Assembly (NCBI GenBank): GCA_949031345.1
Contig: CARNVA010000008.1
Span: forward strand, 7,661-71,660
Source: an uncultured Eubacteriales bacterium
GTDB lineage: Bacteria; Bacillota; Clostridia; Christensenellales; UBA1242
Reading direction: 5' to 3'
DNA length: 64,000 bases
Positions 869-24,575 of the stretch are shown here, one piece after another. The notes beneath the pieces were generated by a model. It was not told where the DNA came from, did not search any database, and saw only the letters and a program-made list of their open reading frames with translations. The position numbers were made by a program, and so were the translations under genes. Each line of letters begins with the position of its first letter. The stretch's first letter is position 1.

Positions 869-2158
869 ATGGAAAAATTAAAAACTGGAACAAAAGTTAT
901 TAGCATAATTTTAGCCGTTATTATTGGACTTGCCTGCTTAATTATTGATGCCTGGTTTCTGTACATAAAACTGCATGGCGAAACAAAAATGACTTCGGTC
1001 ACTGTAAATATGAATGAATTAAAACTGGCAGACGGCAGTACAAAAGAGATAATACAAATAAAACATAAGCGAAATAAAAATCGCAGCGGCATTGAACTTT
1101 TTGAAATCAAATTAAATTATTTAACCAACGAAAATAAGGATGCCTTTTTCAGTCAAGGCCTTCAATATGCCGGCAATAGCTTAAACAGTGCTATAGTATG
1201 GAAAGACTTTGATTACATTTCAAAAACAGCAGGAAATTGGGATTATAAATTTAACCAATACAAATTGCAAGAAGTCTCAAGGTTTCTTTGGAAGGGCAAC
1301 TACTACGCAAGCTACTTTTCCCCTTTTACAGACACTAAAAAATATGAATATCAATCATTCAATGACTTTGCAACAATAGGATCAACTAACCCTATAACTC
1401 CAAGTTCATACTTTACCCTTCAACTTGGCGGTACTAATGAAATCATATATATGCAATTGAAAGGCGATAATTATGCGACGATAAATAAAGCAACACATTT
1501 GATTACTGCCGACCAAGAGGAAAGTATAGGCTATAAAAGCCGTGAAGGCACCTTTGAATCCGACTATATAACTATCTTCAACGACTATAACATGGACTAT
1601 TTTGCTTACACCCTCTATCAAAGCATTTCTACTTTGCCTTCAGGCACGAAAGGAAAGTTTGTTTTTGAATTTGGGAATATTTTTAAATATTTTCTTGCAG
1701 AAAATGGCTTTGTTGGAAATGAAATTCAAACTGAAGATTCTACAAAAGTCATAAACAATATTAAGTCCTACTATACAATTTCTGTTGAAGTCTATGATGA
1801 CGGAGCAAAAAATGCAAACGATAGTATGTTTGGCGTTATTAAAAACGACCCTACCTTCTCAATTAAACCTTCTTATGGCGACTCGGGAAATTACTTTGCA
1901 GGAACGTCAATATTAGACTGCGACATTTACGATTTTGATTTAGTAAGGATTGATGAAATTTATTGTGCATTAAAACTTAAAAAAGAATTTTTAAGTGCAT
2001 ATGAAAAATATGCAAAGGATATAAAGCTGAATATTGTCATAGATACTTCTATTTTAAAAGCTCAAGGACTTGATTATGCTGGCTTTGCAACCGATAGCGG
2101 ACTTGACAATTTTACTATTTTAAACACCACCATTCTACAGGAGGTGCAAAATGCTTAA
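869..2158 (+). CDS. membrane-anchored protein (429 aa), function unknown
   Basis: Long ORF with an N-terminal TM helix (VISIILAVIIGLACLIIDAWFLYI). No catalytic motif recognised. Confidence 0.7.
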   Translation: MEKLKTGTKVISIILAVIIGLACLIIDAWFLYIKLHGETKMTSVTVNMNELKLADGSTKEIIQIKHKRNKNRSGIELFEIKLNYLTNENKDAFFSQGLQYAGNSLNSAIVWKDFDYISKTAGNWDYKFNQYKLQEVSRFLWKGNYYASYFSPFTDTKKYEYQSFNDFATIGSTNPITPSSYFTLQLGGTNEIIYMQLKGDNYATINKATHLITADQEESIGYKSREGTFESDYITIFNDYNMDYFAYTLYQSISTLPSGTKGKFVFEFGNIFKYFLAENGFVGNEIQTEDSTKVINNIKSYYTISVEVYDDGAKNANDSMFGVIKNDPTFSIKPSYGDSGNYFAGTSILDCDIYDFDLVRIDEIYCALKLKKEFLSAYEKYAKDIKLNIVIDTSILKAQGLDYAGFATDSGLDNFTILNTTILQEVQNA

Positions 2159-3458
2159 TTTATTTTTCAACATAACGCCCATTTATGACGTCATAATTCT
2201 TATCTTAATGATCCTACTCATCATTGCTGTAATAAAAGAACCAAAATGTAGAGTGTATGTATTTACCCTATTTATTGCTGCCTTTCTTGCACTGACAGCT
2301 TATAGCGGAATAGAACTCAACTATTATTACCAGGCAAAAGGTGGAATATTTGGTCACATAAAAGATATTGCTCATTCAAATAAAGTTAATATCGAAAACA
2401 CAAAATTTGAGTTTGAAAACATTGTATTAGTGAAGGATGTTGACAGCAATTTCTCTGCAGAGATTACTATTGATGACATTGTTACGCTTGACAAAAATAG
2501 CAACTATACGATTTATATCAACAACACGCCCTGCACTAATTCAGCGTTTAAAAGCAATTATTTAATGGCTGATTTTAGATACCAGTTTATAAACGATAAT
2601 GAAAAAGTATTGAAAGATGATACTTTGAAATTTCGTTTTTCGTTTAACAAAAACAATACTTACATAAAAATTTACACATCTGGTGGACAGCTTGCTGCTG
2701 ATTATTGGCTTCAGTTTTTTGACCGAAATGGCTTAATTATTGAGTTGAAAAAAGTACAACTAGATGACGAATTATCTTTTGTCGATGGTGAAATTTCTGA
2801 TTTTGTAAAAATTGAATATTATGTCGATGACGAAATTTTTACTTATCAATCAATTAAAAAAGGCGAGAAATTAAAACTCGCAAATGCACCAGAAAAAGAA
2901 AATCATATCTTCTTAGGTTGGCTTTCTGAAAGCAACGATTGCATTTTGGAAGATTATGTTGTTGTTGAGAATATGAAACTTCACGCTTCTTATAAAGAAG
3001 CAAGGATTTATTCCGATTTTGTTTTTAATGGCGGATATTTTGAAAAATATGTCGGTGTTGAGGAAAATGTTGTTGTTCCTGCGTCTTATTCGCTGACCCC
3101 CGACGGCCGTGCTTATGAGGGAGACGAACATATTGTTTTTGGCATTTCAATGTTTGCCTTTGAAAATAACGATTACATAAAGTCAATAACCTTCCCTTCT
3201 ACAATAACAATTTTAGAGTCACATTCAATTTACAACTGTAATTCACTGCAATATGTAGTTTTAAATTCTACCATTCCGCCTTTAATTGGGCCAGAGCACT
3301 TCTGTATAACAGAAGTTGAAGAATTAAATGTTTATGTTCCTGATAAAGCATTTTTAGATTACCAAAATTATTGCTATGACCCCGAAGGCTGGGGCACAAC
3401 ATATGAAACACCTTATGTAAAACTTTGTAAATTATCAACTTTGATAATTACTCATTAA
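2151..3458 (+). CDS. membrane protein with Listeria-Bacteroides-type repeat and BspA-like leucine-rich repeats (435 aa)
   Basis: The ATG overlaps the upstream stop (ATGCTTAA) behind a GGAGG RBS. It has two N-terminal TM helices, an 'HIFLGWLSE' repeat signature, and C-terminal LRRs (ITFPSTITILESHSIYNCNSLQYVVL). Confidence 0.75.
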   Translation: MLNLFFNITPIYDVIILILMILLIIAVIKEPKCRVYVFTLFIAAFLALTAYSGIELNYYYQAKGGIFGHIKDIAHSNKVNIENTKFEFENIVLVKDVDSNFSAEITIDDIVTLDKNSNYTIYINNTPCTNSAFKSNYLMADFRYQFINDNEKVLKDDTLKFRFSFNKNNTYIKIYTSGGQLAADYWLQFFDRNGLIIELKKVQLDDELSFVDGEISDFVKIEYYVDDEIFTYQSIKKGEKLKLANAPEKENHIFLGWLSESNDCILEDYVVVENMKLHASYKEARIYSDFVFNGGYFEKYVGVEENVVVPASYSLTPDGRAYEGDEHIVFGISMFAFENNDYIKSITFPSTITILESHSIYNCNSLQYVVLNSTIPPLIGPEHFCITEVEELNVYVPDKAFLDYQNYCYDPEGWGTTYETPYVKLCKLSTLIITH

Positions 3459-3472
3459 AATGGAGGAAATAT

Positions 3473-5414
3473 ATGAAAAAAAACAACAAAATGGATAATT
3501 GGCGGTGCTGTAGTATTATTACTAAGCACTGGCTTGACTTTAGGTCATGTTTTTAGACACGAAATAAAAGATTGGGTTAAAGGTTTTCAATCGTCCAAGC
3601 CAAACCCAAGCCCTGTAGATCCTAAGCCACCTATTCAACTTACTTGCTTGGTTTCAGTTGAAATTCACCGCCCTGACGGTGTTGAAAAAGAAAGTCAAGA
3701 GGTAGAAACTGGATATGAGCTGGAACTTCCTGATACTAATGCCATGGATGAAATTGAAGGTTATATTGCACGCTACTTTTATGTTACTGGATCGGGCTAT
3801 AACAACAGAAAATTACTTGGCGGACAAACTATCACCATTACAAGCGACACAAAAATTACTGTAGCTTATGAAAAAATTATCACAATTGCCTTTGACGTTG
3901 ACGGCAATATAGAATTTCAAGAAGTGATTGAAGGAGACTCCCCTTTTTGGAGAACACCTTCAAAAGTCGGCATGAACTTTGATGGCTGGACTTTGGACGG
4001 AGAAAATGTAATTGACTTATCAAAATATAAAGTAACAGAGTTTGTTACGTTTATCGCAAAATTTTCTTATAAATATTACACTGTTGAATTTGTTCTTAGT
4101 GACACAATGAGATTAAGCTGTAATTATCGCAGCGATAATCAAGTTTATGTTCCAGCGCCTCTTCAAATTGAAGGCAAAGATTGCCTGGGCTGGACTAAAG
4201 ATGGTGAGAATGTCTTTGATTTTAATAAAGTTATTACTGAAGATACCGTCTTCCACCCTTTATATGCCGATCAATCATTTGATGAAACGCTCCCTTTTGC
4301 AATAGAAAATGGTGAAATTACTGGTTATTCTGGGAACGAATCAAATGTTGTAATTCCATCCTCCTATTCTGTCGACAGTCGCGGCAATATAATCGAAGGA
4401 AATGATTATCAAATTGTTAAAATAAGAGATTTTGCGTTTAGAGATTCAAACATGGTTTCTGTTGAAATTATGCCTGGCGTAATTTCAATTGGTGACCAAG
4501 CTTTCTATAATTGCCTTAATCTTGAAAGAGTTATAATCCATGAAGGTTTGACTAGTCTTGGAGATTTAGCATTTGCTGAGTGTGATAATTTAATTTCTAT
4601 AGAACTACCATCTACTATCAATGAATTAAATGGATTTACTTTTTCTGAAATCGACAATTTGCAAAATATTCAAATTTCCGAAGATAACCCTTCTTATAAA
4701 AGTGAAGGCTCAGTTATTCTTACAAAAGATGGCTCACATTTAGTTTTTGCAACAAAAGATGCAGTCATTCCAGAGTCAGTCATTGTAATTGACAATTATG
4801 CTTATGTCTATTCTAAAGTTAAAGAACTAGTTTTGCCGGATTGTGTAACGACAATTGAAGAAAATGCTTTTATGGGATGCAGCGAGCTTACTTCATTAAC
4901 CTTGTCTGCAAACTTACAATTTGATTGGCAATCACAATGCTTTTTGCAAAACTTGGATAAATTTGAAAAACTTGTGATTAAAAATAAAATAGAGAATGCC
5001 TCAAATTTAATCCATGTTCAGTCATTTCAACCTAGAACAAGCTTAATCAATGTCTACGTTCCAGATGAATATTTAGAAGATTATATCAATGCATTCATGT
5101 ATTCTTCACCAATTGTTGTCAATACACTCTCTTCTTTAGAAACTGGCGAAACTCCAACAAAACATGCCGTTTTGTTTAGATATCCTTCAACAGCTGAATA
5201 TTTAGACAATTACAATTGTGCTGATGGTAAAATTTGTGAAACAGGCGACAAGGTTGGCTATAACCACACCGCTCAACTTGAAGGTTATAGATTCTTGCAT
5301 TGGGTAAAGCAAGACCCATTGACAATGGAAGAGGTTGAAGTTGTTGAAGATATTGAGAATTATTTAATTACAGAAAATACTATTTTTAAAGCAATATTTA
5401 GCCCAATTATATAA
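3473..5414 (+). CDS. LRR / Listeria-Bacteroides-repeat protein, candidate adsorption protein; reading frame broken at an A8 tract after the start codon
   Basis: GGAGG lies 8 nt before ATG 3473. In the sequence as given, ATG plus A8 (3476..3483) runs into a stop after 27 codons. With A7 it reads MKKTTKWIIGGAVVLLLSTGLTLGHVF..., a classic signal anchor continuous with ORF 3534..5414. The body has 'FDGWTLDGENV' and 'CLGWTKDGENVF' repeats and BspA-type LRRs. Confidence 0.7.
3476..3483 (+). repeat. A8 homopolymer at codons 2-4 of the LRR protein gene
   Basis: Counted directly as eight consecutive A. Tract length decides whether ATG 3473 is in frame with the 626-aa ORF. Confidence 0.9.
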
Positions 5415-5668: not shown

Positions 5669-6589
5669 ATGAAAATCTATGACGATATTATAAAAATATT
5701 TGAAGATGGAATATTTGGTCCCACTGATATTGTTATTATTTGGGGCAAACGACGACGGGGTAAAAGTTCCCTTGCAGGAATGTTTATGGACCAATTCATG
5801 CGACCTAAAATTGCCAAAAATGATGTGCAAACATCAAAGGCAATTTGCAATCAAATAAGAGAAGCAGGTTATAACATACACCCACCAACTGACCATACTG
5901 TTTTTTGTGATACTTTCTTTGAAAGTAAAGGGTTTGGTAGAAAAAGAAACTCTCCATATAAATTTAATGGAATAGATTTTGGACTTCCAAATGAAACTCA
6001 TAATACTGAACTATTATGTCCATGCGGTAGATACTTTCTTGACGAAACACAGGACCTTTTTGATAGTCACAGACCCTCTCTCTCCACTTTTGTTACTAAA
6101 TCAATTGAATTGTCAGGGCAAATGAAAATATTCTTATGCCTTATTGCTCAGCGTCCAAAAAGAATACATATTGACATAAGAGAACTTGCCGTATTTATTG
6201 AGGTTGTTAAAATGAAAAAAGTTTACAACAAATATGGTCGAATAATTGAATGTTTTTGGGAATGTAATATCATTTATGAAAATGCGGATTTAGAGCAATA
6301 TTTAAACACTCATGATAGGAAGTATATTGATAAGCGTGTTATGTTTAAATATAAAGGTAATATTTTCAATTGCTATGATACCAACTATTTTTTACCAATG
6401 TTTTTTAGAAACATGGAGAATCGAGATTTAATACTTGAAAAAACAAAAAGGACTGAATTCTCAACATCATTTTTTGATGAATATTTTAAAAATCGTGTTA
6501 TTGATATACCTGATTCGTATTTTGGCAAAAAACCAAAAAGTCCTAAAAAGGAGGAAGTTTTAAGTGCAGACGGAAAAACAGTGGCGTGA
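5669..6589 (+). CDS. Zot / pI-like P-loop NTPase (filamentous-phage assembly ATPase family)
   Basis: Walker A is IIIWGKRRRGKSS and Walker B is GRYFLDETQDLF. These are followed by the Zot-like segment SGQMKIFLCLIAQRPKRIHIDIRELAVFIE. No C-terminal TM helix was seen, which is atypical for pI. Confidence 0.6.
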   Translation: MKIYDDIIKIFEDGIFGPTDIVIIWGKRRRGKSSLAGMFMDQFMRPKIAKNDVQTSKAICNQIREAGYNIHPPTDHTVFCDTFFESKGFGRKRNSPYKFNGIDFGLPNETHNTELLCPCGRYFLDETQDLFDSHRPSLSTFVTKSIELSGQMKIFLCLIAQRPKRIHIDIRELAVFIEVVKMKKVYNKYGRIIECFWECNIIYENADLEQYLNTHDRKYIDKRVMFKYKGNIFNCYDTNYFLPMFFRNMENRDLILEKTKRTEFSTSFFDEYFKNRVIDIPDSYFGKKPKSPKKEEVLSADGKTVA

Positions 6590-7004
6590 ACATGAAGAAT
6601 TAAAAACCATGGCTGATTATATGGATGAATTAACAAATATGATTGAACTTTCCCAAGGCTTAGATGGCTCTCAATCTGCGGAAGAACTTGATAAAATTAT
6701 TTCATTGCTACTTAGAGCAATTAAAGAGAAAGAAAAATATGTTATTAAGCGTTCAAGGAAATGGCGAAAAAAGCAAGGCTTTTTATCAAGATTTAAAGAT
6801 ACTATTGAAGAACGACGTGCTTTAAAGGCTTTAAAACATGCTGAGAATGATGAGTACGATGAACAAGATGAAACAGACGAAACAGACGAAGAAAAAGAAG
6901 AAGAGCCTATCAATACAACTTGTACAAATCAAACGCAACAATTGATTACAAATTCACCTTCGCCAGCCCTTGAAGAAGGTCAACAAGAATTGTTGGAATT
7001 TTAA
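6564..7004 (+). CDS. acidic coiled-coil protein (146 aa)
   Basis: GTG start after AGGAGG, overlapping the upstream gene. Contains a D/E run (DEYDEQDETDETDEEKEEE). Confidence 0.5.
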   Translation: MQTEKQWREHEELKTMADYMDELTNMIELSQGLDGSQSAEELDKIISLLLRAIKEKEKYVIKRSRKWRKKQGFLSRFKDTIEERRALKALKHAENDEYDEQDETDETDEEKEEEPINTTCTNQTQQLITNSPSPALEEGQQELLEF

Positions 7005-7090
7005 AAAATCTTGAAAAAAATCAAAAGCCGGCAAAAGAAACACTATGAGCGTAGCCAAGTGTTCTTGCCGCTTTGATTTTCAAGATTTTT
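7005..7090. repeat. long imperfect inverted repeat (about 32 paired positions) in the intergenic region
   Basis: The left arm is AAAATCTTGAAAAAAATCAAAAGCCGGCAAAAGAAACACT and the right arm is AGTGTTCTTGCCGCTTTGATTTTCAAGATTTT. Small bulges lie only on the left arm, and the loop is about 13 nt. Confidence 0.8.
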
Positions 7091-7104
7091 AAAGTCCAAA
7101 TTTA

Positions 7105-7129
7105 CCAAACGCAAAATTTTTGCGTTTGG
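7105..7129. promoter_or_regulatory. perfect 12+1+12 palindrome upstream of the XRE regulator gene (operator or origin candidate)
   Basis: The sequence is CCAAACGCAAAA-T-TTTTGCGTTTGG. A further GCGTTTGCG half-site follows at about 7134-7145. Confidence 0.6.
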
Positions 7130-7216
7130 GCAATTGCGTTTGCGAAATTTTACACAAAAAAATTAAAAATTTCAATTTCAAAAACTTTCAAAATCAAAAA
7201 TTTAACGGAGGAAAAT

Positions 7217-7396
7217 ATGGCTGAAATCAAAAAAATGATAAATGCAATACTCACAAAAGGCAACATGAACCAAAAGGAACTTGCTGCCAAACTTAAAGTT
7301 TCGCCTGCTCAAATCACCCGCTGGCGTGATGACGCAGAACCACGCCTTAAAAATTACCAGGAACTTGAAAAAATTTACAACGATTTGCCAGCTTAA
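7217..7396 (+). CDS. XRE-type helix-turn-helix regulator (59 aa)
   Basis: ATG lies 6 nt after GGAGG. The HTH signature is NQKELAAKLKVSPAQITRWR. The track ORF 7073..7396 is a spurious 5' extension. Confidence 0.75.
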   Translation: MAEIKKMINAILTKGNMNQKELAAKLKVSPAQITRWRDDAEPRLKNYQELEKIYNDLPA

Positions 7397-7411
7397 AAAA
7401 AAGGAGAAAAT

Positions 7412-7819
7412 ATGAAAAGAAAATATATAAGCTATATTGAATTAGTAGAAGAATTACATAAATGCGAAAGCTTAATAACATCACTTGAAGATGATGTTTT
7501 ATATGAAAAGAAAAGGCAAGATAATTTAAACCTTTTAACTAACTATATGTTTAAAGAAGATATCAACTTCATAGAAAGAAAACATATAAAGGACAAACAA
7601 AGCCTACAACATTACATATTGCCCATCAAAGCCCTAGAAGTTGCTAGGCAAAACTGCCCTGAAATAATAATGTGCGGGAAAAGAAAAAGACTAAACGCCT
7701 TCAATGTAGGAGAAGTGCTTGAAGACTTTGTTTCTTTTATTTGTCAAGAAAAAGGTCATAAAATAGGAGTTGGTGACTATCTTATACAAAAATATTTAGA
7801 TGAAAGAGAGTTTTATTAA
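7412..7819 (+). CDS. hypothetical protein (135 aa)
   Basis: GGAG RBS and a long ORF. No motif recognised. Confidence 0.55.
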   Translation: MKRKYISYIELVEELHKCESLITSLEDDVLYEKKRQDNLNLLTNYMFKEDINFIERKHIKDKQSLQHYILPIKALEVARQNCPEIIMCGKRKRLNAFNVGEVLEDFVSFICQEKGHKIGVGDYLIQKYLDEREFY

Positions 7820-8429
7820 AATGGTTTCAAATGATTTGATTAGGTCAATTGGTTATGACCAACAAGAAATAATAAACAACATCTTAAAGCTCTACAACGA
7901 CTCACAACCTATTGATTTTGACCCTTGCTACAATTTAGGAATGTTTTATAAAAATAATAAAGTATGTGCTCCAAGAGTGAAAAGTGATATAAAACCTCTT
8001 CTACAGGGAGTCGAAAAACTAGATGTGCAATATTTACCATTCATAGATGAATTTAATTGCATTATCTTTGACCCGCCTTTTTTAGCTGGCGGTGGATCGG
8101 GCTCAAAAATGGCTCAGCGTTATGGTTCTTTTAAAAACGTTGAAGAACTTCAGCAATTTTTTGTAAATTCTTTTTTCTCTCTGCAGAGAGCTTTAAAAAA
8201 GAAAGGGCTACTTATTGTAAAATGCCAAGACTTTGTAAGTGGCCGGAGAAATTATTTCATGATTGATTTTGTATTAAACTTGGCCAGAGATTTTAATTTC
8301 AAAGTATTAGATTTGTTTATTCTTTTGTCAAAGACAAGACCAACAAAAATTCAACATCAGCAACATGCTAGAAAATATCACTCATACTTCATTGTACTAA
8401 AAAATAAAGGAGGTAAATATGGGACTTAG
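7800..8429 (+). CDS. small DNA methyltransferase (N6-adenine or N4-cytosine class)
   Basis: Catalytic-type motif CIIFDPPFLAGGG (a DPPF/Y variant) in a roughly 200-aa protein. The start codon is uncertain (7800 or 7821). Confidence 0.6.
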   Translation: MKESFIKMVSNDLIRSIGYDQQEIINNILKLYNDSQPIDFDPCYNLGMFYKNNKVCAPRVKSDIKPLLQGVEKLDVQYLPFIDEFNCIIFDPPFLAGGGSGSKMAQRYGSFKNVEELQQFFVNSFFSLQRALKKKGLLIVKCQDFVSGRRNYFMIDFVLNLARDFNFKVLDLFILLSKTRPTKIQHQQHARKYHSYFIVLKNKGGKYGT

Positions 8430-8658
8430 TATTTGGAATCAAGTCAACACGGATAAATTTTTCTGCATATCAAAGATTGACAAAAAGACATTAGAAAAGC
8501 ATGGGATAAATATACCAGTAACACAATTCAAAGATATTGTAAAGAAAACTCCACCGCACAACCAAATACCAACAGGAAGCACCAATTCGCATGGTCATTT
8601 ACGTATGACCAATATTTATCGTTTTGAGGACTTTGACTATCTAAAATCAACCAATTAA
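8419..8658 (+). CDS. hypothetical protein (79 aa)
   Basis: AGGAGG RBS. The start overlaps the end of the upstream gene. Confidence 0.5.
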   Translation: MGLSIWNQVNTDKFFCISKIDKKTLEKHGINIPVTQFKDIVKKTPPHNQIPTGSTNSHGHLRMTNIYRFEDFDYLKSTN

Positions 8659-8672
8659 AAGGAAATAATCAA

Positions 8673-9008
8673 ATGAAAAATAATAAAATTGACAAAGAAA
8701 CGAAAATTTACAAACCAAAAAAATGGAGCTTTAGAAAAAATAAAGCAAGAGAGAACCACCCTTCACTTGTTATAGGTGAAAATGGAAACAATTATGCTAA
8801 TTTAGGACTAACTCACTCTCCCAAAAGAGGACATCACAAAAATACAGAACTGTCAAAAAATCCAAATACAAAAGACAAAAAAACATCTTATATTAGAGAC
8901 GATTTAAAATATGATAAAAAAGAAAACTTAAAGGTAATTCTAAAAGATTACAAATTGTCCTCAAAAGACGTAGATAAAATATTAAAAATAATCAATAAAA
9001 AAAGATAG
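8673..9008 (+). CDS. basic hypothetical protein (111 aa)
   Basis: K-rich ORF and the last gene of the co-oriented block. Ends with TAG. Confidence 0.5.
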   Translation: MKNNKIDKETKIYKPKKWSFRKNKARENHPSLVIGENGNNYANLGLTHSPKRGHHKNTELSKNPNTKDKKTSYIRDDLKYDKKENLKVILKDYKLSSKDVDKILKIINKKR

Positions 9009-12193: not shown

Positions 12194-12251
12194 TCATAAA
12201 AAAGCATAATTATAATAAAAAAAGCAAGTCATATTTTGACCTGCTTTAGCT

Positions 12252-13061
12252 TTAATTTTCTACTGAGTTATCCTTATTTTGAATTTCATTATTGTCGTTT
12301 TCTTCTGCTATTTTCTCATCTTCAGCCTTCAATTCGATATCTGTTTCTTTCAATTCCTCGTTTTCATTATTTTCATCATTTTCATTATTTTCAATCAAAT
12401 CATCTGATTTTTTGACAGAATTATCGTTTTTTGCATGTTTTTTCGCTTTTTTATCGTCTTTTTTCGCTTTTTTGTCTAAATTATCCTTATTTTTCTTTTG
12501 CGGATGAAACAGACTTAAAAACTTTCCAAGAAGGATTATGACCTTTTCTGAGTGCAGCATTGCATACTTTTTAAAATATGCCTTACCAAAAATTGTAAGC
12601 GCCGCAATAACTGCTGAAACAAGTGATGCAATGAAGACCATAAGAAAATTGTTTGATACATGAAGTATAACTGCTGCCGTGATTGTCGCACCAGCTGCAC
12701 CTGACAAAATTCCACAAATGTCACCAATAACATCGGCTGCAACACTTGCAACTTTTTCTTTGTTTTCAAGAAGTCTGATTGACTCTTTTGCCCCCCTTAC
12801 CTTTCTTGCCGCCATAGCTCTAAAAGGCTCAAAATTCGCAGCAGTAATTGCAACACCAATCATATCTGCAAAGATTGAAATCAAAATAAACACCAAAATG
12901 ACAACCACACTGACAGCTATGCCTGCACCTGAAAGTGCAATCTCACTCGCAATACCGAAAGCAAGCGATAAGAAGAAAGATAGTGCCAAAACAATAAGCG
13001 GCCATTTCCACCACACTGCAAACTTCGACGGTTTGGGTTTTCGTTCTTTTTTAATTTTCAT
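12252..13061 (-). CDS. four-TM membrane protein with paired ADMIGV / ADVIGD motifs and a K/D/E/N-rich tail (OapA-like or DUF21-like)
   Basis: Four hydrophobic helices. An inter-helix segment (FEPFRAMAARKVRGAKESIRLLENKEKV) resembles the DUF21/CNNM-type loop. A DxxxD motif (DVIGD) is present. The C-terminal roughly 75 aa are low complexity. Confidence 0.75.
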   Translation of the reverse strand: MKIKKERKPKPSKFAVWWKWPLIVLALSFFLSLAFGIASEIALSGAGIAVSVVVILVFILISIFADMIGVAITAANFEPFRAMAARKVRGAKESIRLLENKEKVASVAADVIGDICGILSGAAGATITAAVILHVSNNFLMVFIASLVSAVIAALTIFGKAYFKKYAMLHSEKVIILLGKFLSLFHPQKKNKDNLDKKAKKDDKKAKKHAKNDNSVKKSDDLIENNENDENNENEELKETDIELKAEDEKIAEENDNNEIQNKDNSVEN

Positions 13062-13398
13062 TTTTTTATTACCTCTTTTAATTTATCCTCTTTTAATGAA
13101 AGGTATTATATCATATTTTTATGTTTTTTGCAAATAATTTTATTTTTTATCTAAAATCTATAATTCACATAATATTTTACATATATCTTGTATCCTTTAT
13201 AAATAGCTAAACTTTCTATATAAAAAGCATGGTGCTCTTCCTGCATAAAATATTATGACAAAATTACTATATGAAATAATAAAGCAGCTATACCCACACT
13301 TTATATAAATATAATTGTGCTTACTGAATAAATATGACAGCATTGTCAATATAAATATAACTGCATTTTTTATCAAGATATAATTACATTTTCTGCAT

Positions 13399-13429
13399 AA
13401 AAAAAGTATAACAGCAAATGCTGTTATAC
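13399..13429 (-). terminator. rho-independent terminator of the large ncRNA
   Basis: A 10-bp stem (GTATAACAGC / GCTGTTATAC) with a 4-nt loop, followed by U7 on the minus strand. Confidence 0.85.
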
Positions 13430-13991
13430 TTAGAAGGCAGCTGGTTAAGTAAACCTTGCGCCATAGGTTCGGTCGGATTTCCCATTCTCGCACTCAAGCG
13501 TCACCGCTTCGAGCAGTTTCCTATTAAGCAAGACATTACACCGAATCGCCACTTAGGTCGCACTATAATCCCTATCCAGCCAGCACTTAGCAACAGTCTA
13601 GAAGTTTTCCTTGACAGAAAACAATTTTATTAGCCTATTTTGCAAATGCCATTTCATAAGCAGCAGTTTTCAAATTATTGGCCGATAATATGAAAACGCT
13701 TTTGCTTAATCCCAAGCCATTCACTCAAGGCAGGCTACGCTGCACACAACTTTTATCGCAATGCAGGTTCTTCCTCAATAGTAGAAGAGTTGACTTCCAC
13801 CCATTAAGGTCTCCACGAAAATTGGGTCGTGGACTGTATGCCATTACAATTCGCCCAAAATTCTTAACTCCCAGCACCAGCCCCAGTTTGGGCAACCAAA
13901 GCCAGCACCAGAAACTTCACAGATATGCCCGTCGACGCTATTACTTCGCCTTCCTAAAAAAGCCTTCTGACTAGAATACTGCACCTTCTAT
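13399..13991 (-). ncRNA. large (about 590 nt) structured non-coding RNA, class unresolved (OLE-like candidate)
   Basis: G+C-enriched block with no credible ORF. It has a consensus sigma-70 promoter upstream and a perfect terminator downstream on the minus strand. 5' AGAAGGC (13962-13968) can pair with 3' GCCTTCT (13432-13438). Several local hairpins are visible, such as CCACGA/TCGTGG and GTTTTC/GAAAAC. Confidence 0.65.
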
Positions 13992-13997
13992 TATTAG

Positions 13998-14026
13998 ATT
14001 ATATCATAAATGCAATAAAAATGCAA
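13998..14026 (-). promoter_or_regulatory. sigma-70-type promoter of the large ncRNA
   Basis: Minus strand reads TTGCAT (14026-14021), a 17-nt spacer, then TATAAT (14003-13998). Confidence 0.7.
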
Positions 14027-14270: not shown

Positions 14271-16415
14271 TTATAAATTCTTATCGTTATCGTTAAAATA
14301 TGATTGAAACATTTTCGCAATCGTATCTTTCGAATAACCAAATTTCTTTTCTCTGTCTTTTTCAAGTTTTCTTTCTTCTTCTAAAAAGGTCGTGGTATTT
14401 TTAAATCTTTCCATCATCTGAGAAGCCTTGTCATCATAATTTTTCTTTTCCTCTTCATCAATCTGATTGATTAAGATAGCACGCTCATCATCATTTTCTA
14501 TCCATAAGCTGTCAAATACTTCTAGGTTTTCTCTTCCTAAATGCACCTTTACAAATTCGCGTACCTTCTTTACTCCCTTCTCGTCCACGCACTTAAAGCT
14601 GCATGTAAGAGCATATTTCTCGGTCTGTTTGCTTGGCAGCGCTTTCAAATCCACTTGGTCTGACAATATATCTTCTATTGTTATTCGTGGTAGTGATGCA
14701 AATTTGATAAGGGCTATCGCGTTTGACTCGCCTATCTTATCTGCCAGCATCTTTATTCGAAGCTCTCCTTTATTTGCATATATGATATTCGAAACCTGTT
14801 CCCAGCCGCGTGGGTCGATTGCAAATTTTGGTGGGTTTTCTGTGTCATACTTTGTATAGAACGCATTCTTATCATTTGCTGCTACAAAGGCTGCTACTAG
14901 TGGGTGTATCTTAGTTTTACCGTCTGGTCTTTTCTCGCTTCCCCACTCCAAGAAGTCTTTTATATCTGGTTTAAGCTCGATATGTGCTTCAAAGCGGCGG
15001 AATAGTGGCTCTGGCATATTGTAGGCAGCTTCGCTCTCTTCTGGGCTATTTCCTGCTGCAATCACCACACAATTGTCTGGCAGTTTGCCTATATTTCCGT
15101 CTATCGACCTTGACAATACCAGGTGAAACACCAGTGACTGCTCGTTTGGTCTGACATTTGTAAGCTCATCTATGAATAACACATGATTGTGCTCTGGGTC
15201 TTTTTGGCAGACCTCTTTTATTCTTGTATACCAAGTTGGCTCTATCCAAAATGATTGTCTACCTTCTGTGCCCGTCTTTCCTGTTATCTCTTCTGGCAGC
15301 ATTCCATTTCTTAGTTGCAAGCATACGCAGTCTGGGTCAAGCTCTTGCACTCTCCTTGTCTTTCCTACTCCGCTTGGCCCATGCAGCATGAAGCTTATAC
15401 CTTCATCTATGTAAAACCTCATCTGCTCTTTTACTGACAGTGGCGTGTTGTTGATGCTTACGCCATAAGGGTTTGGGCGAGGCTTTGTTTCTTGCTTTTC
15501 CTCTTCTTCATCATCTTCATCTGAATAGTTAAGCTCTGCGTTCATGTCTGCCTCTTCCAAAAATCCACAACCTTTAGAATTATAAAGACGAGTTGGGGCA
15601 TCAGCCTCATTTCCATTACCCTTATTAAGTTCTTCCTCTAAATCATAGCCATTAAGATAAATACGAGGCAATGAATTTTGCCATTGCACTTCATTGTTGC
15701 GATGATAAAAAGGAACGCCTGATAAAATTCCCTTTTTGCTTCTTACTAACATCGTTTCATTTTCATCTTTTTCTATTAAAAACTCAATAGGCTCTACCTT
15801 AAACCAGTAATGTTCACCTTTATTAAAGTCGATATCACCCTCAAACGTCACCTTGCCTTTACATGTGCTTGATTTGTCCGCTCTGACCCTTACATATTTG
15901 TTGCCTTTGTATTCATACTCAAAGTTGTCTTGCAAAACGCTATCAAGTCCAGCTATATATCTTCCGCTGTAAACCCTGCCTGTAGCATTCAGCTTTCCAT
16001 CTTGATAAGCATCTTCGATTTCAGCCGAGTTTAATGCGTAAGACTGCGGGAAAACAAAATCATCAAAGGAAATGGTCTAATAATTGCCATAATTTATCAC
16101 ATTGTGATTTTTTGGAAGCTTCTTTTTGTCAAGCAACATGCTTGGAAAAATAGCATTTCTTTTGCAGGTAGATTCACAACAATATTCATTTCCTTCACTG
16201 AAACATAAGGCATCGTCATATTTTATATTTCTGATTGCAGCGTCGCATTCATTGCTGGCATTGATATCTGCACCGCAGGCGATTGCATAGTCGGTTGGCT
16301 TAAGCGGCATGAATGAATATTTCTCAAAATATTGAAAAGTATCAAAAAAAACAAGGTCTTTTGTACCACATTCAAGTTCCATCGGAATAATACAATTTTT
16401 AAAAAGTTGTGCCAT
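14271..16415 (-). pseudogene. DUF6273-like / MoxR-type AAA+ fusion, paralogue 1, interrupted by one in-frame TAG (16077-16079)
   Basis: ORFs 16077..16415 and 14271..15935 share a frame and are separated only by a TAG. The 47 codons between them have no stop. They read TISFDDFVFPQS..., homologous to paralogue 3 (TISFSKLTFPQR). The reconstructed length of about 714 aa matches the paralogues (714 and 692 aa). Confidence 0.7.
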
Positions 16416-19956: not shown

Positions 19957-22101
19957 ATGAAACTTGAAGATATTTTAATTAAACAGACTGTTTCAAATCG
20001 AGGAATTATAACCAACGACTATGTCACGATTGACACCCATCAAAGCATTAAAGAATTAGGCCCAAATGAATCATATCGCTATATTACACCTTCCGATTTT
20101 GTTTTTGATAGTGGGTATGCAGAAGCAGCTCAGTTAAGCAACAACAGACATTGCAAAGTCTGGCTTATGCCAAACCAAAAACCCACTTTCAATTGCAGTA
20201 AAGGCGAATTTTCTAACACAACAAACTGCATAGAACAACATGGCGTACGCCCTAAAATAGATATTAAAATCGACGCTGTTCTTGAAGAATTTAGCCCGCT
20301 TGGCGTATATATATTGAATAAAATCAAAGGCGAAATTATATTTAATAATTTAGTTTATCCGCAAGAACAATGCTCAAGCTCTTTATGTGAACAACTTAAT
20401 AGAGCGAAAAAAGATAATCAAATAATTTTTACTGGAAGAAGTTTTCTTATAGATTCAGAATCAAAAGTAAATATTGCTGAAGTTTTATACAACAATGCTA
20501 GGTATGTTGAATTTGCAAATAAGTGGTATCATGTAAGTCCAATTGTATGGAAGATTGAAAATTGGAAGGATATGCCTTCTTCTTTAAATCCTATAAAAGA
20601 CCGATGGTGGAAGGAAGAAAATGCAGCAAAAGTTATGGAGCTGCGCTGCGTAAATGGGTTAATATTCCTGCCTTTCAACAACGAATATAACCTTATGCAT
20701 TCAGCCAATATTTATGAATGGCAAAATTCAAACGTCCGTGCATATTTAAACAGTCTCAACCTTCACAAAGATATTCAAGCTGGCAATGGCGACCCTACAA
20801 AACTTTGCACCAAGAATATAAACTTTGAGGGTAATGGATTTTTAGAGCAAATGTTTATTCAAGACAAAGTCCTGATCAGTGGGAAGAAAACAGAGAAGAA
20901 AATTTTAATAAACAAACAAATGAAAAAGCTTGCAGAAAAAGAAGATTCTCCTTATTCAGTAACCGTTGACAATACCCCGCTCACAGCGACCGAGCAAATG
21001 AAATTCTATCTTGAAACAGGCAAAAACTTTATGCTTCATGGCCCAAGCGGCGTGGGCAAATCTAGACGCGTCAAAGAGCTTGACCCAGACTGCGTCTGCC
21101 TGCAACTAAGAAATGGAATACTTCCAGAAGAAATTATTGGTAAGACTGGCTCTGAAGGAAAAGAAACTTTTTGGATTGAGCCAACTTGGTATACCCGCTT
21201 AAAAGAGCTTTGCGAAAACGACCCAAAGCACAACCATATTCTCTTTATTGACGAAATAACAAATGTAAGACCAAGCGAACAATCTTTGGTTTTCCATATT
21301 GTGCTTGAGCATTCTATCGATGGAAATATTGGCAAACTGCCAAAAAACTGCATAGTGGTCGCAGCTGGAAACAGCCCTGAAGAGAGTGAAGCTGCCTATA
21401 ATATGCCAGAGCCACTGTTCAGACGCTTTGCAGGGCATATATATCTTGACATTGATATTGAAAGTTTCATTGAATGGGGAAGTGAAAAACGAGCTGACGG
21501 ATTGACTAAAATTCACCCACTTGTTTCACTTTTTATTGCCGAAAAAGGAAAGAAGGTGTTCTATTCAAAATACGACCCTGAAAATCCGCCTAAATTCACC
21601 CTTGACCCTCGTGGCTGGGAGCAGGTTTCAAGCATAATCTATGCAAACAATAATACATTAAGCATCAAACTGCTTTCAGACAAGCTTGGGACAAAGGTGG
21701 CAAATGAGCTTATTTCTTTTGCCAAAAGAGCAAATTTCTTAACACTGAAAGATATTTTAAGTGGCAATTATATTGGAAAAATTCCTTTTTCAACAGAAGG
21801 CAAAGACTTTCTCGTCTGCAATCTGCGTTATACTGATAAAAAAGATGTAGGCTCAGTGCGTCAATTTATCAAAAAGCATCTTGGTCAAGACAGACTTGAA
21901 AAATTTGATAGACTTTGGATTGATGGCCAGCAAGACAAAAAAGATTATCTTGACAAACTTGATGCCGAGCAAGAAGAACAAAGACTTAGAGAAGAAGAGA
22001 GAAGGCTTAAAGAAGAAGAGCTTGAAAGAGAAAGAAGAGAAAAAGAAGAACAAGAGAAAATTAAAAATAAACAAAAAGAAGAGGATTTTTTAACCTTTTA
22101 G
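19957..22101 (+). CDS. DUF6273-like / MoxR-type AAA+ fusion, paralogue 2 (714 aa)
   Basis: AAA+ motifs are Walker A LHGPSGVGKS, LPEEIIGKT, Walker B LFIDEITN, sensor AAGN, MPEPLFRRF and DPRGWEQVS. The N-terminal module has GVRPKIDI, WYHVSPIVWKI and WQNSNVRAYLNSLN. The tail is E/K/R-rich coiled coil. Confidence 0.85.
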   Translation: MKLEDILIKQTVSNRGIITNDYVTIDTHQSIKELGPNESYRYITPSDFVFDSGYAEAAQLSNNRHCKVWLMPNQKPTFNCSKGEFSNTTNCIEQHGVRPKIDIKIDAVLEEFSPLGVYILNKIKGEIIFNNLVYPQEQCSSSLCEQLNRAKKDNQIIFTGRSFLIDSESKVNIAEVLYNNARYVEFANKWYHVSPIVWKIENWKDMPSSLNPIKDRWWKEENAAKVMELRCVNGLIFLPFNNEYNLMHSANIYEWQNSNVRAYLNSLNLHKDIQAGNGDPTKLCTKNINFEGNGFLEQMFIQDKVLISGKKTEKKILINKQMKKLAEKEDSPYSVTVDNTPLTATEQMKFYLETGKNFMLHGPSGVGKSRRVKELDPDCVCLQLRNGILPEEIIGKTGSEGKETFWIEPTWYTRLKELCENDPKHNHILFIDEITNVRPSEQSLVFHIVLEHSIDGNIGKLPKNCIVVAAGNSPEESEAAYNMPEPLFRRFAGHIYLDIDIESFIEWGSEKRADGLTKIHPLVSLFIAEKGKKVFYSKYDPENPPKFTLDPRGWEQVSSIIYANNNTLSIKLLSDKLGTKVANELISFAKRANFLTLKDILSGNYIGKIPFSTEGKDFLVCNLRYTDKKDVGSVRQFIKKHLGQDRLEKFDRLWIDGQQDKKDYLDKLDAEQEEQRLREEERRLKEEELERERREKEEQEKIKNKQKEEDFLTF

Positions 22102-22496: not shown

Positions 22497-24575
22497 ATGG
22501 ATTTAAAAACCGAGCTTTACAACTTAATAATTAAAAATGACTTTGACGACTATTTTTCTATTCCCAAAATAGCTTCTTTAAAGGCTGTTTCCGCAAAAGA
22601 GAGAAAATTGGTCCTTTCTGACTATGCACAAGCTTGTGGAGGGTTTGTCGACAATTTCAATCCTGGTCGATACACCATTTATGTTTTTAATGAAGGGCGC
22701 AGCTTTTATGCCTCACATATTGTTCCAATAGTTTGTTCAAACGGTAAATTTAATTATAATGAAGTTACTTCAAAAGATGCATGCATTGCGCCAAGAATGA
22801 TTTTAGACATTGACAAACTGAAAAACTCAAGGCTTGGCGAGGAATATAAGATTGACCCAATTGAAAAGACAATTTCTTTTTCAAAACTCACCTTTCCACA
22901 GCGTATATCACCAAATAGTGACCAACTTGAAATGCAATTTAAGAAAAATCCAGCTTCTTTTAAGACAAGCGGAAAAACTTTCAGCGGCAAGTTTATCAAC
23001 GCCCACTCTTTCGACTGCCTTGAGCACAACAACGAATATCTGATTGAGGGCAAACTTTATGCCAGAGTGAAAGTTTTAAACAACCAATCTGTAATAAACA
23101 CTCAACCCTTCTCAGACGGCAAAGTTTATGAGAATGGCAGATACATTTGGTGCATGGTCGAGCCTATCGTGTGGAAGATAGACAATTTTGGCGACATTGC
23201 AACGCTTATTGACGAAAATTCAATTATGCTTCAAAAGACAAGCCATAGAATGTATTTACATGCCCGAGATGGCATAATCAGCGGCATGCCATTTTATCCT
23301 GCTTATGAGAAAATCAACAATTACTGTGAGCTTTATCAAAACTCGCTTATACGGGCATATCTCAACAGCTTAAACACCTATGCTAACATTGAGAAAAACC
23401 CAGAAAAATTTAAACTCAAAGCCCCTCAAAATTTTAATTTTGTAGACAACGGCTTTATTGATGAAATAATTGCCAGCGACATAGAAAATCTTAAGGAAGA
23501 CTATGTCAATGGAGAATACAACCTCGTTTTTGACAATACTCCACTTTCCGTAAAAGAGCAAATGCGGTTTTATCTTAATACTGGCAAAAGTTTCATGCTT
23601 CACGGCCCAAGCGGTGTGGGCAAAACAAGGCGAGTGCAAGAGCTTGACCCAGACTGCGTCTGCATCCAGCTTCGTGACGGAATGCTTCCAGAAGAGATTA
23701 TTGGCAAGACCTCTTTTGATGGCAATGCTACAGGCTGGATAGAACCAACTTGGTATACAAGGCTTAAATTCCTCTGCAACAAAGAGCCAGAAAAAAAGCA
23801 TATTCTATTCATTGACGAGCTTACAAATGTTCATGAAAACGAACAATCTCTAGTCTATCATATTGTGCTTGAGCATTCCATTGACGGAAATCTTGGTGCT
23901 CTGCCTAAAAACTGCGTGGTAGTTGCGGCAGGAAACAATCCTGATGAAAGTGAAGCTGCCTACAACATGCCAGAGCCACTCTTTCGCCGATTTGAAGGGC
24001 ATATCTATCTTCAGCCAAACCTTTCAAGCTTTCTTGAATGGGGAAGCGGTTTGGACGAAAATGGAAATCCAAAAATTCATCCGCTTATTGCTGAGTTTTT
24101 AGCAAGCAACAAGGGAAATGCCTTCTATTCAAAATATGATTCAATCTCTCCACCAAAGTTTGCAATTGACCCTCGCGGCTGGGAGCAAGTTTCAAAGATC
24201 ATCTATGACAACAAAGGTGTTTTGCGGTTTGAGCTTTTGGCAAGCAAGCTTGGTGAGGATATTGCCAGCGACCTTATGGCATTTGCAAAGCTTCCAAAAA
24301 TTTCCATTTCAGATATTATGAACGACAAAATAAAAACCTCAATTATTCCTCCCGACAAAGACTCTAAGTTTGCCCTCACCTGCGCGTTGCGCTCTGCAAA
24401 CGAGAAGCAAGTGGAAAAAGTGCGCCAGTTTATAAAAATTTATCTTGGCGAAGAAAACCTTGCCTTCTTTGACTCTATGTGGTGCGAAGATAATGAAGAA
24501 CGGGCAATTTTGATTGGACAAATTGACTCACAATACCACCTTGAAGCTTTAAGCAATCCAAAAGAGGACTTATGA
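22497..24575 (+). CDS. DUF6273-like / MoxR-type AAA+ fusion, paralogue 3 (692 aa)
   Basis: Same AAA+ motif set (LHGPSGVGKT, LFIDELTN, AAGN, MPEPLFRRF, DPRGWEQVS). The N-terminal module has SDYAQACGG, TFPQ, WCMVEPIVWKI and YQNSLIRAYLNSLN. Confidence 0.85.
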   Translation: MDLKTELYNLIIKNDFDDYFSIPKIASLKAVSAKERKLVLSDYAQACGGFVDNFNPGRYTIYVFNEGRSFYASHIVPIVCSNGKFNYNEVTSKDACIAPRMILDIDKLKNSRLGEEYKIDPIEKTISFSKLTFPQRISPNSDQLEMQFKKNPASFKTSGKTFSGKFINAHSFDCLEHNNEYLIEGKLYARVKVLNNQSVINTQPFSDGKVYENGRYIWCMVEPIVWKIDNFGDIATLIDENSIMLQKTSHRMYLHARDGIISGMPFYPAYEKINNYCELYQNSLIRAYLNSLNTYANIEKNPEKFKLKAPQNFNFVDNGFIDEIIASDIENLKEDYVNGEYNLVFDNTPLSVKEQMRFYLNTGKSFMLHGPSGVGKTRRVQELDPDCVCIQLRDGMLPEEIIGKTSFDGNATGWIEPTWYTRLKFLCNKEPEKKHILFIDELTNVHENEQSLVYHIVLEHSIDGNLGALPKNCVVVAAGNNPDESEAAYNMPEPLFRRFEGHIYLQPNLSSFLEWGSGLDENGNPKIHPLIAEFLASNKGNAFYSKYDSISPPKFAIDPRGWEQVSKIIYDNKGVLRFELLASKLGEDIASDLMAFAKLPKISISDIMNDKIKTSIIPPDKDSKFALTCALRSANEKQVEKVRQFIKIYLGEENLAFFDSMWCEDNEERAILIGQIDSQYHLEALSNPKEDL

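Follow-up and report, generated by a model that had tools for sequence, protein, structure and literature searches.

Results

Features of the locus

On the minus strand of the window (the whole 64,000-nt stretch of DNA analysed here, from an uncultured Eubacteriales bacterium), positions 12252..14026 hold a large structured RNA gene followed by a gene for a membrane protein, with promoter-like and terminator-like sequences around each (Table 1). We conclude that this is almost certainly an ordinary ole-oapA locus, from a gut member of the Clostridia that is uncultured and low in GC. The RNA gene is a typical example of OLE (ornate, large, extremophilic) RNA, a known bacterial RNA that is large, structured and membrane-associated, and not a new RNA class, the protein gene is by its sequence that of OapA, the known membrane-anchor partner of OLE RNA, and apart from small local peculiarities the features of the locus are already known. 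An identical contig is present in the MAG GCA_948596945.1, and RNA and protein of identical sequence were seen in several independent samples. The loci most closely related to this one carry the labels uncultured Clostridia, Eubacteriales or Christensenellaceae, consistent with the Bacillota hosts, typically anaerobic or extremophilic, in which OLE RNAs occur.

Table 1. Features of the ole-oapA locus, in the direction of transcription (positions in the window)
Feature	Position	Strand	Basis or remark
ole promoter: TTGCAT (14026..14021), 17-nt spacer, TATAAT (14003..13998)	13998..14026	-	Read from the sequence
OLE RNA gene	13418..14003	-	Extent of the Rfam RF01071 match
P1 closing helix, 5' strand AGAAGGU	13983..13989	-	Pairs with 13438..13432
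Long-range helix, 5' strand CAGAAGGC	13962..13969	-	Segment presumed in the earlier note to close the RNA
Palindromic GGCC, terminal loop of the long arm, corresponding to L9.3	13680..13683	-	Alignment to the Rfam model (uGGCCaa)
Long-range helix, 3' strand GUUUUCUG	13615..13622	-	Covariation with 13962..13969
Junction of the absent P13 hairpin	13535..13541	-	19 consensus positions reduced to 1 nt
GUGA (GNRA) tetraloop on a P14.1-type hairpin	13501..13504	-	cmscan alignment, GCGGUGACGC
P1 closing helix, 3' strand GCCUUCU	13432..13438	-	Covariation and RNAalifold
ole intrinsic terminator: 12-bp stem, 4-nt loop, seven U	13397..13431	-	Terminator scan and folding
oapA promoter-like site: TTGCAA, 17-nt spacer, TATAAT, upstream TG	13105..13133	-	10 of 12 matches in the scan
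oapA, 269 aa, four long presumed transmembrane helices, basic-then-acidic tail	12252..13061	-	BLASTP, Pfam, AF2, Foldseek
Terminator-like hairpin and T-run after oapA	12221..12247	-	Terminator scan

Identification of the RNA

A scan with the Rfam covariance models, proposed as a check in the earlier note, placed the RNA far above the OLE threshold: cmscan matched it to RF01071 with 407.9 bits (E 2.2e-116) against a gathering score of 50 bits, and the match spanned model positions 1-616 without truncation. All of the conserved OLE sequence blocks were present in the window RNA, as judged from the cmscan alignment and from 66 relatives, across which more than 200 columns were invariant or near-invariant. 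OLE was the sole Rfam match here and RNase P, tmRNA, SRP and 6S gave none in the region, in agreement with the failure to find their hallmarks by eye. Of 80 related genome loci, about 70 had the OLE gene upstream of, and in the same orientation as, a gene for an OapA homologue. The earlier note had left the choice between a divergent OLE/oapA locus and a new large RNA; the full-length RF01071 match, the OapA reference match described below (E 1e-25) and this gene order together establish the OLE/oapA reading, while 'divergent' does not fit an end-to-end match of 407.9 bits. An undescribed class of large structured RNA resembling OLE merely in size and gene context could appeal to the lack of housekeeping-RNA hallmarks and to the absence of the classic ole neighbours, with tilS, AAA ATPases and a phosphodiesterase nearby instead, but it is refuted by that full-length match and by the presence of every conserved block, and we regard its probability as negligible.

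The structured core, from the 5' to the 3' strand of P1, covers 13989..13432 (558 nt), and the gene measures ∼594 nt when counted from its predicted start through the terminator, both in keeping with the size of about 600 nt of OLE RNAs. The GC content is 0.38–0.465 over 13400..13999 versus 0.16–0.24 in the flanks, which bears out the G+C enrichment noticed earlier at 13399..13991. The only ORFs in the region are the short ones listed in the earlier note, those of 71 and 98 aa among them, and none of the internal ORFs matched Pfam even at E<=1, so that their coding potential was rejected. There is practically no chance that the region codes for protein through one of its 46–98-aa ORFs on either strand: the 71-aa and 98-aa ORFs do exist, and the public MAG annotation of the identical contig calls the former a gene (L001, 5429..5644), but substitutions among the relatives track base-pairing rather than codons and the OLE model accounts for the entire region.

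Secondary structure and covariation

From a MAFFT alignment of 66 OLE sequences, on which the covariation tests were based, RNAalifold predicted 144 pairs, 80 of which showed compensatory changes, in support of a multi-helix secondary structure. The closing helix P1 was paired in 96.8% of cells over the 66 sequences, with changes on both sides at four of its seven pairs (17 sequences, for instance, have A-U in place of a G-C pair), and was independently predicted by RNAalifold. The second long-range helix, formed by CAGAAGGC (13962..13969) and GUUUUCUG (13622..13615), was paired in 78% of cells with both-side changes at seven of eight pairs, and the two helices outscored shuffle and slide controls. 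The RNA had been proposed to close by pairing of AGAAGGC with GCCUUCU at its 3' end; the 3' strand was correctly recognized, but its actual 5' partner is AGAAGGU at 13989..13983. The proposed pairing of 13968..13962 with 13438..13432 is complementary in the window, but only 30.7% of its cells are paired in the 66 relatives, equal to shuffles, and it was rejected.

The palindromic terminal loop of the long arm corresponds to L9.3, the loop through which the two RNAs of the OLE dimer make a symmetric kissing contact (PMC12286853). All of the 66 relatives carry a G/C-containing palindrome at this loop, namely GGCC, GCGC, GUAC, ACGU, CGCG or UCGA. The loop of one arm is 7 nt shorter than in the OLE model (cmscan alignment). 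The P13 hairpin, with its GNRA loop and bulge, was not found in the cmscan alignment, where a single nucleotide replaces its consensus positions, and the P13 site has no insert in 65 of the 66 aligned sequences, that of the window included, L067 alone having one. P13 with its GNRA loop and bulge is the primary OapB site in Halalkalibacterium halodurans and is found in most, though not all, full-length OLE RNAs. The window RNA retains a GNRA tetraloop on the hairpin of the P14.1 type, which is a weak secondary OapB site in H. halodurans (PMC7936274).

Transcription signals and gene neighbourhood

The promoter-like TTGCAT-17nt-TATAAT arrangement at 14026..13998, read by eye in the earlier note, is present, and its -10 element is of the extended type (TGaTATAAT, 14006..13998). 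In nearly all of the 66 related OLE loci, a TATGnTATAAT box stands at a constant distance from the RNA. Since the -35 hexamer TTGCAT matches the consensus at only three of six positions, the site was missed by our consensus scan, in which promoter sites were overall no more numerous than in shuffles. Transcription is predicted to start near 13991, 1–2 nt before P1. The stem of the terminator spans 13431..13404 (-16.1 kcal/mol, z = -4.41); the hairpin and U7 had been noted before, although the stem, described as a perfect 10-bp one, has 12 bp. A hairpin with a T-run was found no more than 75 nt after P1 in 39 of 76 related loci. The earlier view that the RNA has its own promoter and terminator thus agrees with the extended -10 box and the 12-bp-stem terminator seen in the sequence, from which ole is predicted to be transcribed alone.

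The start of oapA lies 370 nt downstream of the P1 3' strand, compared with a median gap of 95 nt in relatives. TATAAT-type boxes also precede oapA in close relatives, while the spacer sequence is otherwise not conserved. With 370 nt between them, the two genes appear to form separate transcription units, and oapA is apparently expressed from its own promoter. We considered whether the spacer holds another RNA element or a riboswitch; Rfam gave chance-level hits only (15 bits versus a threshold of 60), the spacer shows no conservation beyond the species, and the candidate was rejected. Short AT-rich repeats in the spacer look like chance. In a subclade of the related loci, the ole-oapA distance has grown to 0.2–2.1 kb; there, a promoter of its own precedes ole, and a terminator of its own often follows it. 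When all genes of the window were scanned against Pfam, no classic ole neighbour (isoprenoid, DNA-repair and similar genes; ispA, dxs, xseAB and others) came up. Genes for TilS, AAA ATPases and a phosphodiesterase are located near the locus.

The OapA protein

Residues 20–208 of the 269-aa protein matched residues 10–194 of the reference OapA (194 aa, from Supplementary Table 4 of PMC12286853) by BLASTP with E 1e-25 and 35% identity, the DVIGD motif being aligned between the two. Both motifs pointed out earlier as a pair are present, ADMIGV at residues 65–70 and ADVIGD at 109–114, but the DxxxD signature belongs to the second alone (D110-V-I-G-D114); D66, D110 and D114 do not vary among 68 homologues. 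Four transmembrane helices had been proposed, and hydropathy and an AF2 model of moderate confidence (pLDDT 68, pTM 0.54) agree on four long hydrophobic helices, at about residues 13–45, 48–74, 101–132 and 138–169 in the model and covered by two broad hydrophobic regions in the hydropathy profile. The K/D/E/N-rich tail is likewise there, as 83 residues (187–269) that are Lys-rich and then Asp/Glu/Asn-rich. After F185 the protein has 84 residues, versus a median of 46 and a maximum of 87 in 67 homologues.

Of the two families suggested beforehand for comparison, OapA gave the reference match, whereas the CNNM/DUF21 profile (PF01595) scored 20.7 bits, under its cut-off of 28.4. The top six PDB fold matches of the model in Foldseek were all CorB/CorC CNNM domains, with TM-scores of at most 0.54; the best (7M1T, 7M1U, 7CFG and 7CFF) had probabilities of 0.96–1.00 and weak E-values, 7.8e-3 at best. 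No NCBIfam model matched the protein, and no solved relative of OapA came up when the PDB was searched by sequence. Together, these data strongly support a model of OapA as a four-helix membrane protein with a CNNM-like fold and DxxxD.

Discussion

Comparison with known OLE systems

The window RNA resembles the OLE RNAs of H. halodurans and Clostridium acetobutylicum in length, conserved blocks, helix architecture, P1 and the GGCC loop, and, like characterised OLE RNAs, it has oapA next on the same strand; its host probably belongs to the Bacillota, as theirs do. The setting differs: ole of H. halodurans is embedded in a long polycistronic cluster, whereas the window ole has an extended -10 promoter and a terminator of its own, and the usual neighbours of characterised loci, such as ispA, dxs and xseAB, are missing. 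The RNA departs from the Rfam model in lacking P13 and in the 7-nt shorter loop of one arm. Variant OLE RNAs have been described from uncultured gut clades, variant 1 in TANB77 and variant 2 in RF39 (Fernando and Breaker 2024, PMC11332333), in which OapB and OapC are lacking. Variant 1 shares with the window RNA an uncultured gut host and the missing OapB-binding element P13, and because P13 loss is known in such variants, it is no argument against OLE membership. The long arm (P7-P9) is shortened in the gut variants (PMC11332333), whereas that of the window aligns to the Rfam model without deletions, so that the RNA looks full-length and lacks P13 only.

The window OapA is like the reference in its four helices, DxxxD, weak CNNM relationship, CorB-like fold and place after ole, and exceeds it in length (269 versus 194 aa) by its 83-residue tail, which is at the top of the homologue range. 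A mark of OapA proteins in general is the lack of a proline that is conserved in CNNM domains. The window OapA shares its membrane-domain fold with the CNNM/CorB/CorC/MpfA Mg2+ transporters (PF01595). Members of that family carry cytosolic CBS-pair or CorC_HlyC domains, whereas the window protein has neither and its C-terminus is of low complexity; CNNM domains have three helices and no DxxxD, in contrast to its four helices with DxxxD. Given these differences and the sub-threshold PF01595 score, the window OapA is not a member of the CNNM family.

Proposed mechanism

The dedicated extended -10 promoter and the directly following intrinsic terminator would lead to transcription of ole on its own. 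The RNA of ∼590 nt has the OLE architecture, in which a multi-arm 5' domain is enclosed by P1 and the second long-range helix and the conserved junction lies in the 3' domain. OLE RNAs are characteristically abundant transcripts that form RNPs and localise to the membrane. By analogy with H. halodurans and C. acetobutylicum, two OLE RNAs may dimerise, partly through the palindromic GGCC loop, and OapA dimers would bind to the RNA and anchor it at the cytoplasmic membrane or through it. Such a particle might then help the cell to withstand stresses that include short-chain alcohols, cold, excess Mg2+ and poor carbon sources, although a gut anaerobe may not share this stress role, which was described in a distantly related aerobic alkaliphile. 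Since P13, the OapB site in H. halodurans, is missing, the particle here is probably a reduced one built on OLE and OapA; a tblastn search of the 64-kb window for OapC found nothing.

Decay or rewiring of the locus

We consider it very improbable that this ole copy is decaying or functionally uncoupled, with OapA acting alone as an MpfA-like Mg2+ exporter. The 370-nt gap to oapA against the median of 95 nt, the terminator of ole, the loss of P13 and reports of defective ole genes in rare genomes (PMC11332333) would fit such a reading, but the invariant blocks and helices are all intact with a full-length score, identical RNA and protein sequences occur in several independent samples, and the whole subclade keeps ole beside oapA with a conserved promoter. 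The reported defective copies, moreover, occur in genomes without OapA (PMC11332333), whereas OapA is intact here with all of its invariant residues.

Somewhat less improbable, although still unlikely, is that the OLE particle of this gut-Clostridia subclade has been both reduced and rewired, with independent ole and oapA units, P13 lost, and the OapA tail replacing OapB or OapC. The long, basic-then-acidic, disordered tail would then take over their partner-recruiting or RNA-chaperoning role, and ole and oapA, as separate units, would be open to independent regulation. If true, the rewired locus would represent an OLE system pared down to two components, which would lend itself to reconstitution.

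Under the ordinary ole-oapA reading that we prefer, the locus has little significance except for its correct annotation: in the public MAG the RNA is not annotated, and a spurious ORF of 71 aa is called within it. Three minor points may be of use to OLE specialists: the clean covariation of P1 and of the second long-range helix in the alignment; the retention of the palindrome in all of the 66 relatives, which supports the existence in uncultured gut lineages of the dimer seen by cryo-EM; and the subclade in which ole and oapA have moved apart.

Identification of an OLE RNA gene

The earlier note described a G+C-rich stretch between AT-rich spacers, bearing only short ORFs, and proposed either a divergent OLE/oapA locus or an undescribed large RNA. 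G+C content was 0.38–0.465 across 13400..13999 versus 0.16–0.24 in the spacers on either side (35% in the whole window), and the only ORFs found inside were the short ones already named, none of which had a Pfam hit at a cut-off as loose as E ≤ 1. When the whole window was searched against Rfam 15, as had been suggested, the OLE model (RF01071, gathering score 50) gave the single strong match in this region, with 407.9 bits and an E-value of 2.2e-116, spanning model positions 1–616 without truncation. The other two matches in the window, a T-box leader and a tRNA, lay elsewhere, and the models for RNase P, tmRNA, SRP and 6S, whose signatures the earlier note had also failed to find, matched nowhere in the window. 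The OLE blocks conserved in the Rfam alignment include GGUGCAGUAUUCUAGUC, GUUAAG, UAAUGGCAUA, GUAGCCUG and CUUCUAGACUGU, and further GGAUUAUAGUG, AGUGGCGAUUCGGUG, GGGAAAUCC and CAAGGUUUAC. Relative to the OLE consensus, the RNA lacks 7 nt from one hairpin loop and has a single nucleotide in place of 19 positions just 3′ of the 5′ strand of a P12.2-type helix. Judged by its sequence, the predicted RNA is an OLE RNA; with a downstream protein matching the reference OapA, and with ole and oapA linked clade-wide, the first of the two proposals is the one that held. In the public annotation of an identical MAG contig, the OLE RNA is unannotated and a 71-aa gene is called within it on the opposite strand (L001 5429..5644, equal to window 13418..13633 (+)); this ORF, which has no family match, is probably spurious.

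Features of the ole–oapA locus and of other genes in the window
Feature	Position	Strand	Description
ole promoter	14026..14021 and 14003..13998	−	TTGCAT, 17-nt spacer, TATAAT; sequence reading
ole (OLE RNA)	13418..14003	−	RF01071 match
P1, 5′ strand	13989..13983	−	AGAAGGU
P1, 3′ strand	13438..13432	−	GCCUUCU
L9.3 equivalent	13683..13680	−	GGCC
GUGA tetraloop	13504..13501	−	hairpin next to missing P13
ole terminator	13431..13404	−	12-bp stem, 4-nt loop, run of seven T
oapA promoter-like site	13133..13105	−	TTGCAA-17-TATAAT, upstream TG
oapA	12252..13061	−	269 aa
oapA terminator	12247..12221	−	terminator scan
AAA_5/AAA_3-type ATPase	14271..15935	−	
AAA_5/AAA_3-type ATPase	19957..22101	+	
AAA_5/AAA_3-type ATPase	22497..24575	+	
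T-box leader	39788..39961	−	97.5 bits (gathering score 93), Rfam
Class II aminoacyl-tRNA synthetase	38443..39774	−	Asp/Asn/Lys type (PF00152)
tRNA	51469..51542	+	69.8 bits; anticodon loop CUUGCAA
DUF2201/VWA-like protein	35556..37814	−	752 aa
Surface protein	2151..5414	+	BspA-type LRR, Listeria-Bacteroides repeat
Surface protein	5669..9008	+	BspA-type LRR, Listeria-Bacteroides repeat
Surface protein	40017..42995	−	BspA-type LRR, Listeria-Bacteroides repeat
Small membrane protein	57403..58056	−	YQEYF-DEK-type motif
Small membrane protein	58826..59356	−	YQEYF-DEK-type motif
Small membrane protein	59571..60167	−	YQEYF-DEK-type motif

Helices, dimerisation loop and loss of P13

Covariation was evaluated in an alignment of the window RNA with 65 relatives (66 sequences), where RNAalifold predicted 144 pairs, 80 of which keep pairing through changes on both sides. 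A terminal helix (P1) closes the molecule, as the earlier note had proposed, but in the pairing tests its 5′ strand, at the extreme 5′ end, lay 20 nt further upstream than had been suggested. The P1 strands were paired in 96.8% of cells, and four of seven positions carried compensatory changes (in 17 sequences, for instance, A-U replaced G-C); the helix was recovered independently by RNAalifold. The helix originally proposed, in which AGAAGGC (13968..13962) pairs with the same 3′ strand, was paired in 30.7% of cells, a rate not distinguishable from that of the shuffles and exceeded by several slid versions of the helix. The 13968..13962 segment pairs instead with GUUUUCUG at 13622..13615 in another long-range helix, which was paired in 78% of cells with double changes in seven of its eight pairs.

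The loop through which C. acetobutylicum OLE makes its symmetric kissing contact in the cryo-EM dimer, L9.3, has been reported as GGCC covarying with other palindromes (PMC12286853). The window equivalent is GGCC, and a G/C-containing palindrome (GGCC, GCGC, GUAC, ACGU, CGCG or UCGA) occupies this loop in all 66 sequences, 56 of them recovered by an automatic procedure and the rest read from the alignment.

By its position, the element missing from the window OLE is P13 of the H. halodurans OLE–OapB complex structure, a small GNRA-capped hairpin containing one bulged nucleotide that serves there as the primary OapB-binding site (PMC7936274). The GUGA tetraloop retained in the adjacent hairpin corresponds to the weak secondary OapB site of H. 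halodurans. Gut clades with variant OLE RNAs reportedly lack OapB and OapC for the most part (PMC11332333), OapC was not found by tblastn within the 64-kb window, and the P13 loss would fit a reduced particle. An insert at the P13 position was seen in only one of the 66 sequences (L067, 2246..2892), and the OLE of another locus (L081, 1795..2476) has an extra insertion of ∼60 nt in the long GGCC-loop arm.

The partner protein

The gene following ole encodes the paired motifs that had been pointed out, ADMIGV at residues 65–70 and ADVIGD at 109–114, and ends in an 83-residue charged tail, Lys-rich first and Asp/Glu/Asn-rich after. The protein is OapA. The reference OapA sequence (Supplementary Table 4 of PMC12286853) matched it across the whole membrane domain with an E-value of 1e-25 and 35% identity, with DVIGDI exact, and D66, D110 and D114 were invariant in alignments of 18 and 68 homologues. 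NCBIfam gave no match, and the Pfam match to CNNM (PF01595), a Mg2+ transporter membrane-domain family, reached 20.7 bits against a cut-off of 28.4. This sub-threshold behaviour resembles that of published OapA proteins, which cluster just below true CNNM/MpfA proteins in CNNM-model searches and are set apart from them by a DxxxD motif (PMC11332333).

An AlphaFold2 model from the 68-sequence alignment, of moderate confidence (pLDDT 68, pTM 0.54), bore out the four-helix description with long helices at residues 13–45, 48–74, 101–132 and 138–169. Its six best PDB fold matches were all CNNM membrane domains, including MtCorB (7M1T, 7M1U) and CorC (7CFG, 7CFF), with probabilities of 0.96–1.00 and TM-scores up to 0.54 but weak E-values. 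The model thus reproduces the published CorB-type match of H. halodurans OapA, for which 7M1U was the top structural match (PMC11332333); no solved relative of OapA was found in a PDB sequence search. The tail is not conserved: 84 residues follow the last invariant Phe (F185), above the median (46) and close to the maximum (87) of 67 homologues.

Promoters, terminators and spacing

The promoter and the hairpin with U7 described as bracketing the RNA were both present on the minus strand. The −10 box is of the extended type, with TG one base upstream of TATAAT, and the promoter was not listed by a consensus scan because its −35 element fits TTGACA at only 3 of 6 positions. In nearly all of the 66 relatives, a TATGnTATAAT box precedes the P1 5′ strand by a fixed distance, and a dedicated ole promoter is therefore a feature of the clade. 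Transcription is predicted to start at ∼13991, 1–2 nt before P1. The terminator folds at −16.1 kcal/mol (z = −4.4 versus shuffles), and a hairpin with a T-run was found within 75 nt after P1 in 39 of 76 related loci. Since composition, ORFs, promoter, terminator and protein motifs were all confirmed, every feature described in the earlier note was located where it had been placed.

Among related loci, the gap between P1 and the oapA start had a median of 95 nt and a range of 15 to 2120 nt; that in the window, 370 nt, falls in the upper tail, as do those of its closest relatives (233, 331, 447, 740 and 1521 nt). The spacer contained no recognisable RNA family in Rfam and no conservation outside the species. 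Between a 16-nt spacer segment (13329..13344) and one arm of the ole terminator (13417..13432), complementarity reaches 88%, which may be chance, given that the spacer is unconserved beyond the species. Whereas ole of H. halodurans sits within a gene cluster transcribed as one polycistronic RNA (PMC12265935), the window ole has its own predicted promoter and terminator.

Related loci and neighbouring genes

Using the N-terminal 192 residues of the window protein as a query, we obtained 1075 homologues at E ≤ 0.001. A search covering one genome for each GTDB species gave 80 loci encoding relatives, all from uncultured MAGs (Clostridia, Eubacteriales, Christensenellaceae-like or similar). The exact window protein is carried by a 59-kb contig of MAG GCA_948596945.1 and by several metagenome assemblies. 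The homologue collection suggested earlier, carried out by nhmmer with the window RNA as a query, showed a same-strand OLE immediately upstream of the OapA gene at ∼70 of the 80 loci, the exceptions being mostly loci cut off by a contig end. From this gene order, the predicted ole and oapA genes are linked across the clade. The two are separated by 0.74, 1.5 and 2.1 kb in L007, L011 and L060, respectively, and in L079 oapA is followed by an oppositely oriented OLE gene (844..1404 (−)).

The Pfam scan of the window genes revealed none of those that usually neighbour ole; the genes around ole–oapA encode an AAA_5-type ATPase, TilS, a type I phosphodiesterase, a GNAT acetyltransferase, ABC transporters and others. 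The three paralogous AAA_5/AAA_3-type ATPases, one encoded directly upstream of ole, have near-identical ATPase cores and divergent N-terminal regions. The T-box leader precedes the aminoacyl-tRNA synthetase gene, and the anticodon loop of the tRNA suggests tRNA-Ala(UGC). In the 752-aa protein, a Gln/Gly-rich low-complexity insert of ∼250 residues separates the DUF2201 metallopeptidase N-domain from the VWA-like C-domain. A run of small genes adjoining the surface-protein genes, including those for an HTH_3 protein and an N6_N4 DNA methylase, is possibly a mobile-element remnant. The three small membrane paralogues had no Pfam match.

Relation to known OLE systems

In other species, OLE RNA binds OapA at 1:2, requires OapA for membrane localisation and dimerises, and H. 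halodurans without the OLE complex is sensitive to ethanol, cold, Mg2+ and poor carbon sources (PMC11332333, PMC12265935, PMC12286853). By analogy, the window OLE RNA would bind OapA at the same ratio, localise to the membrane, dimerise and act under stress. The RNA class, partner protein, CNNM relationship and dimerisation loop are already published, as is the loss of the OapB site from OLE RNAs of uncultured gut lineages, and everything found at this locus falls inside those descriptions, with a separate promoter and terminator, a widening ole–oapA spacer in one subclade and a long acidic OapA tail as minor variations. In sum, the ole–oapA locus of this bacterium is a known system that was correctly recognised by eye.
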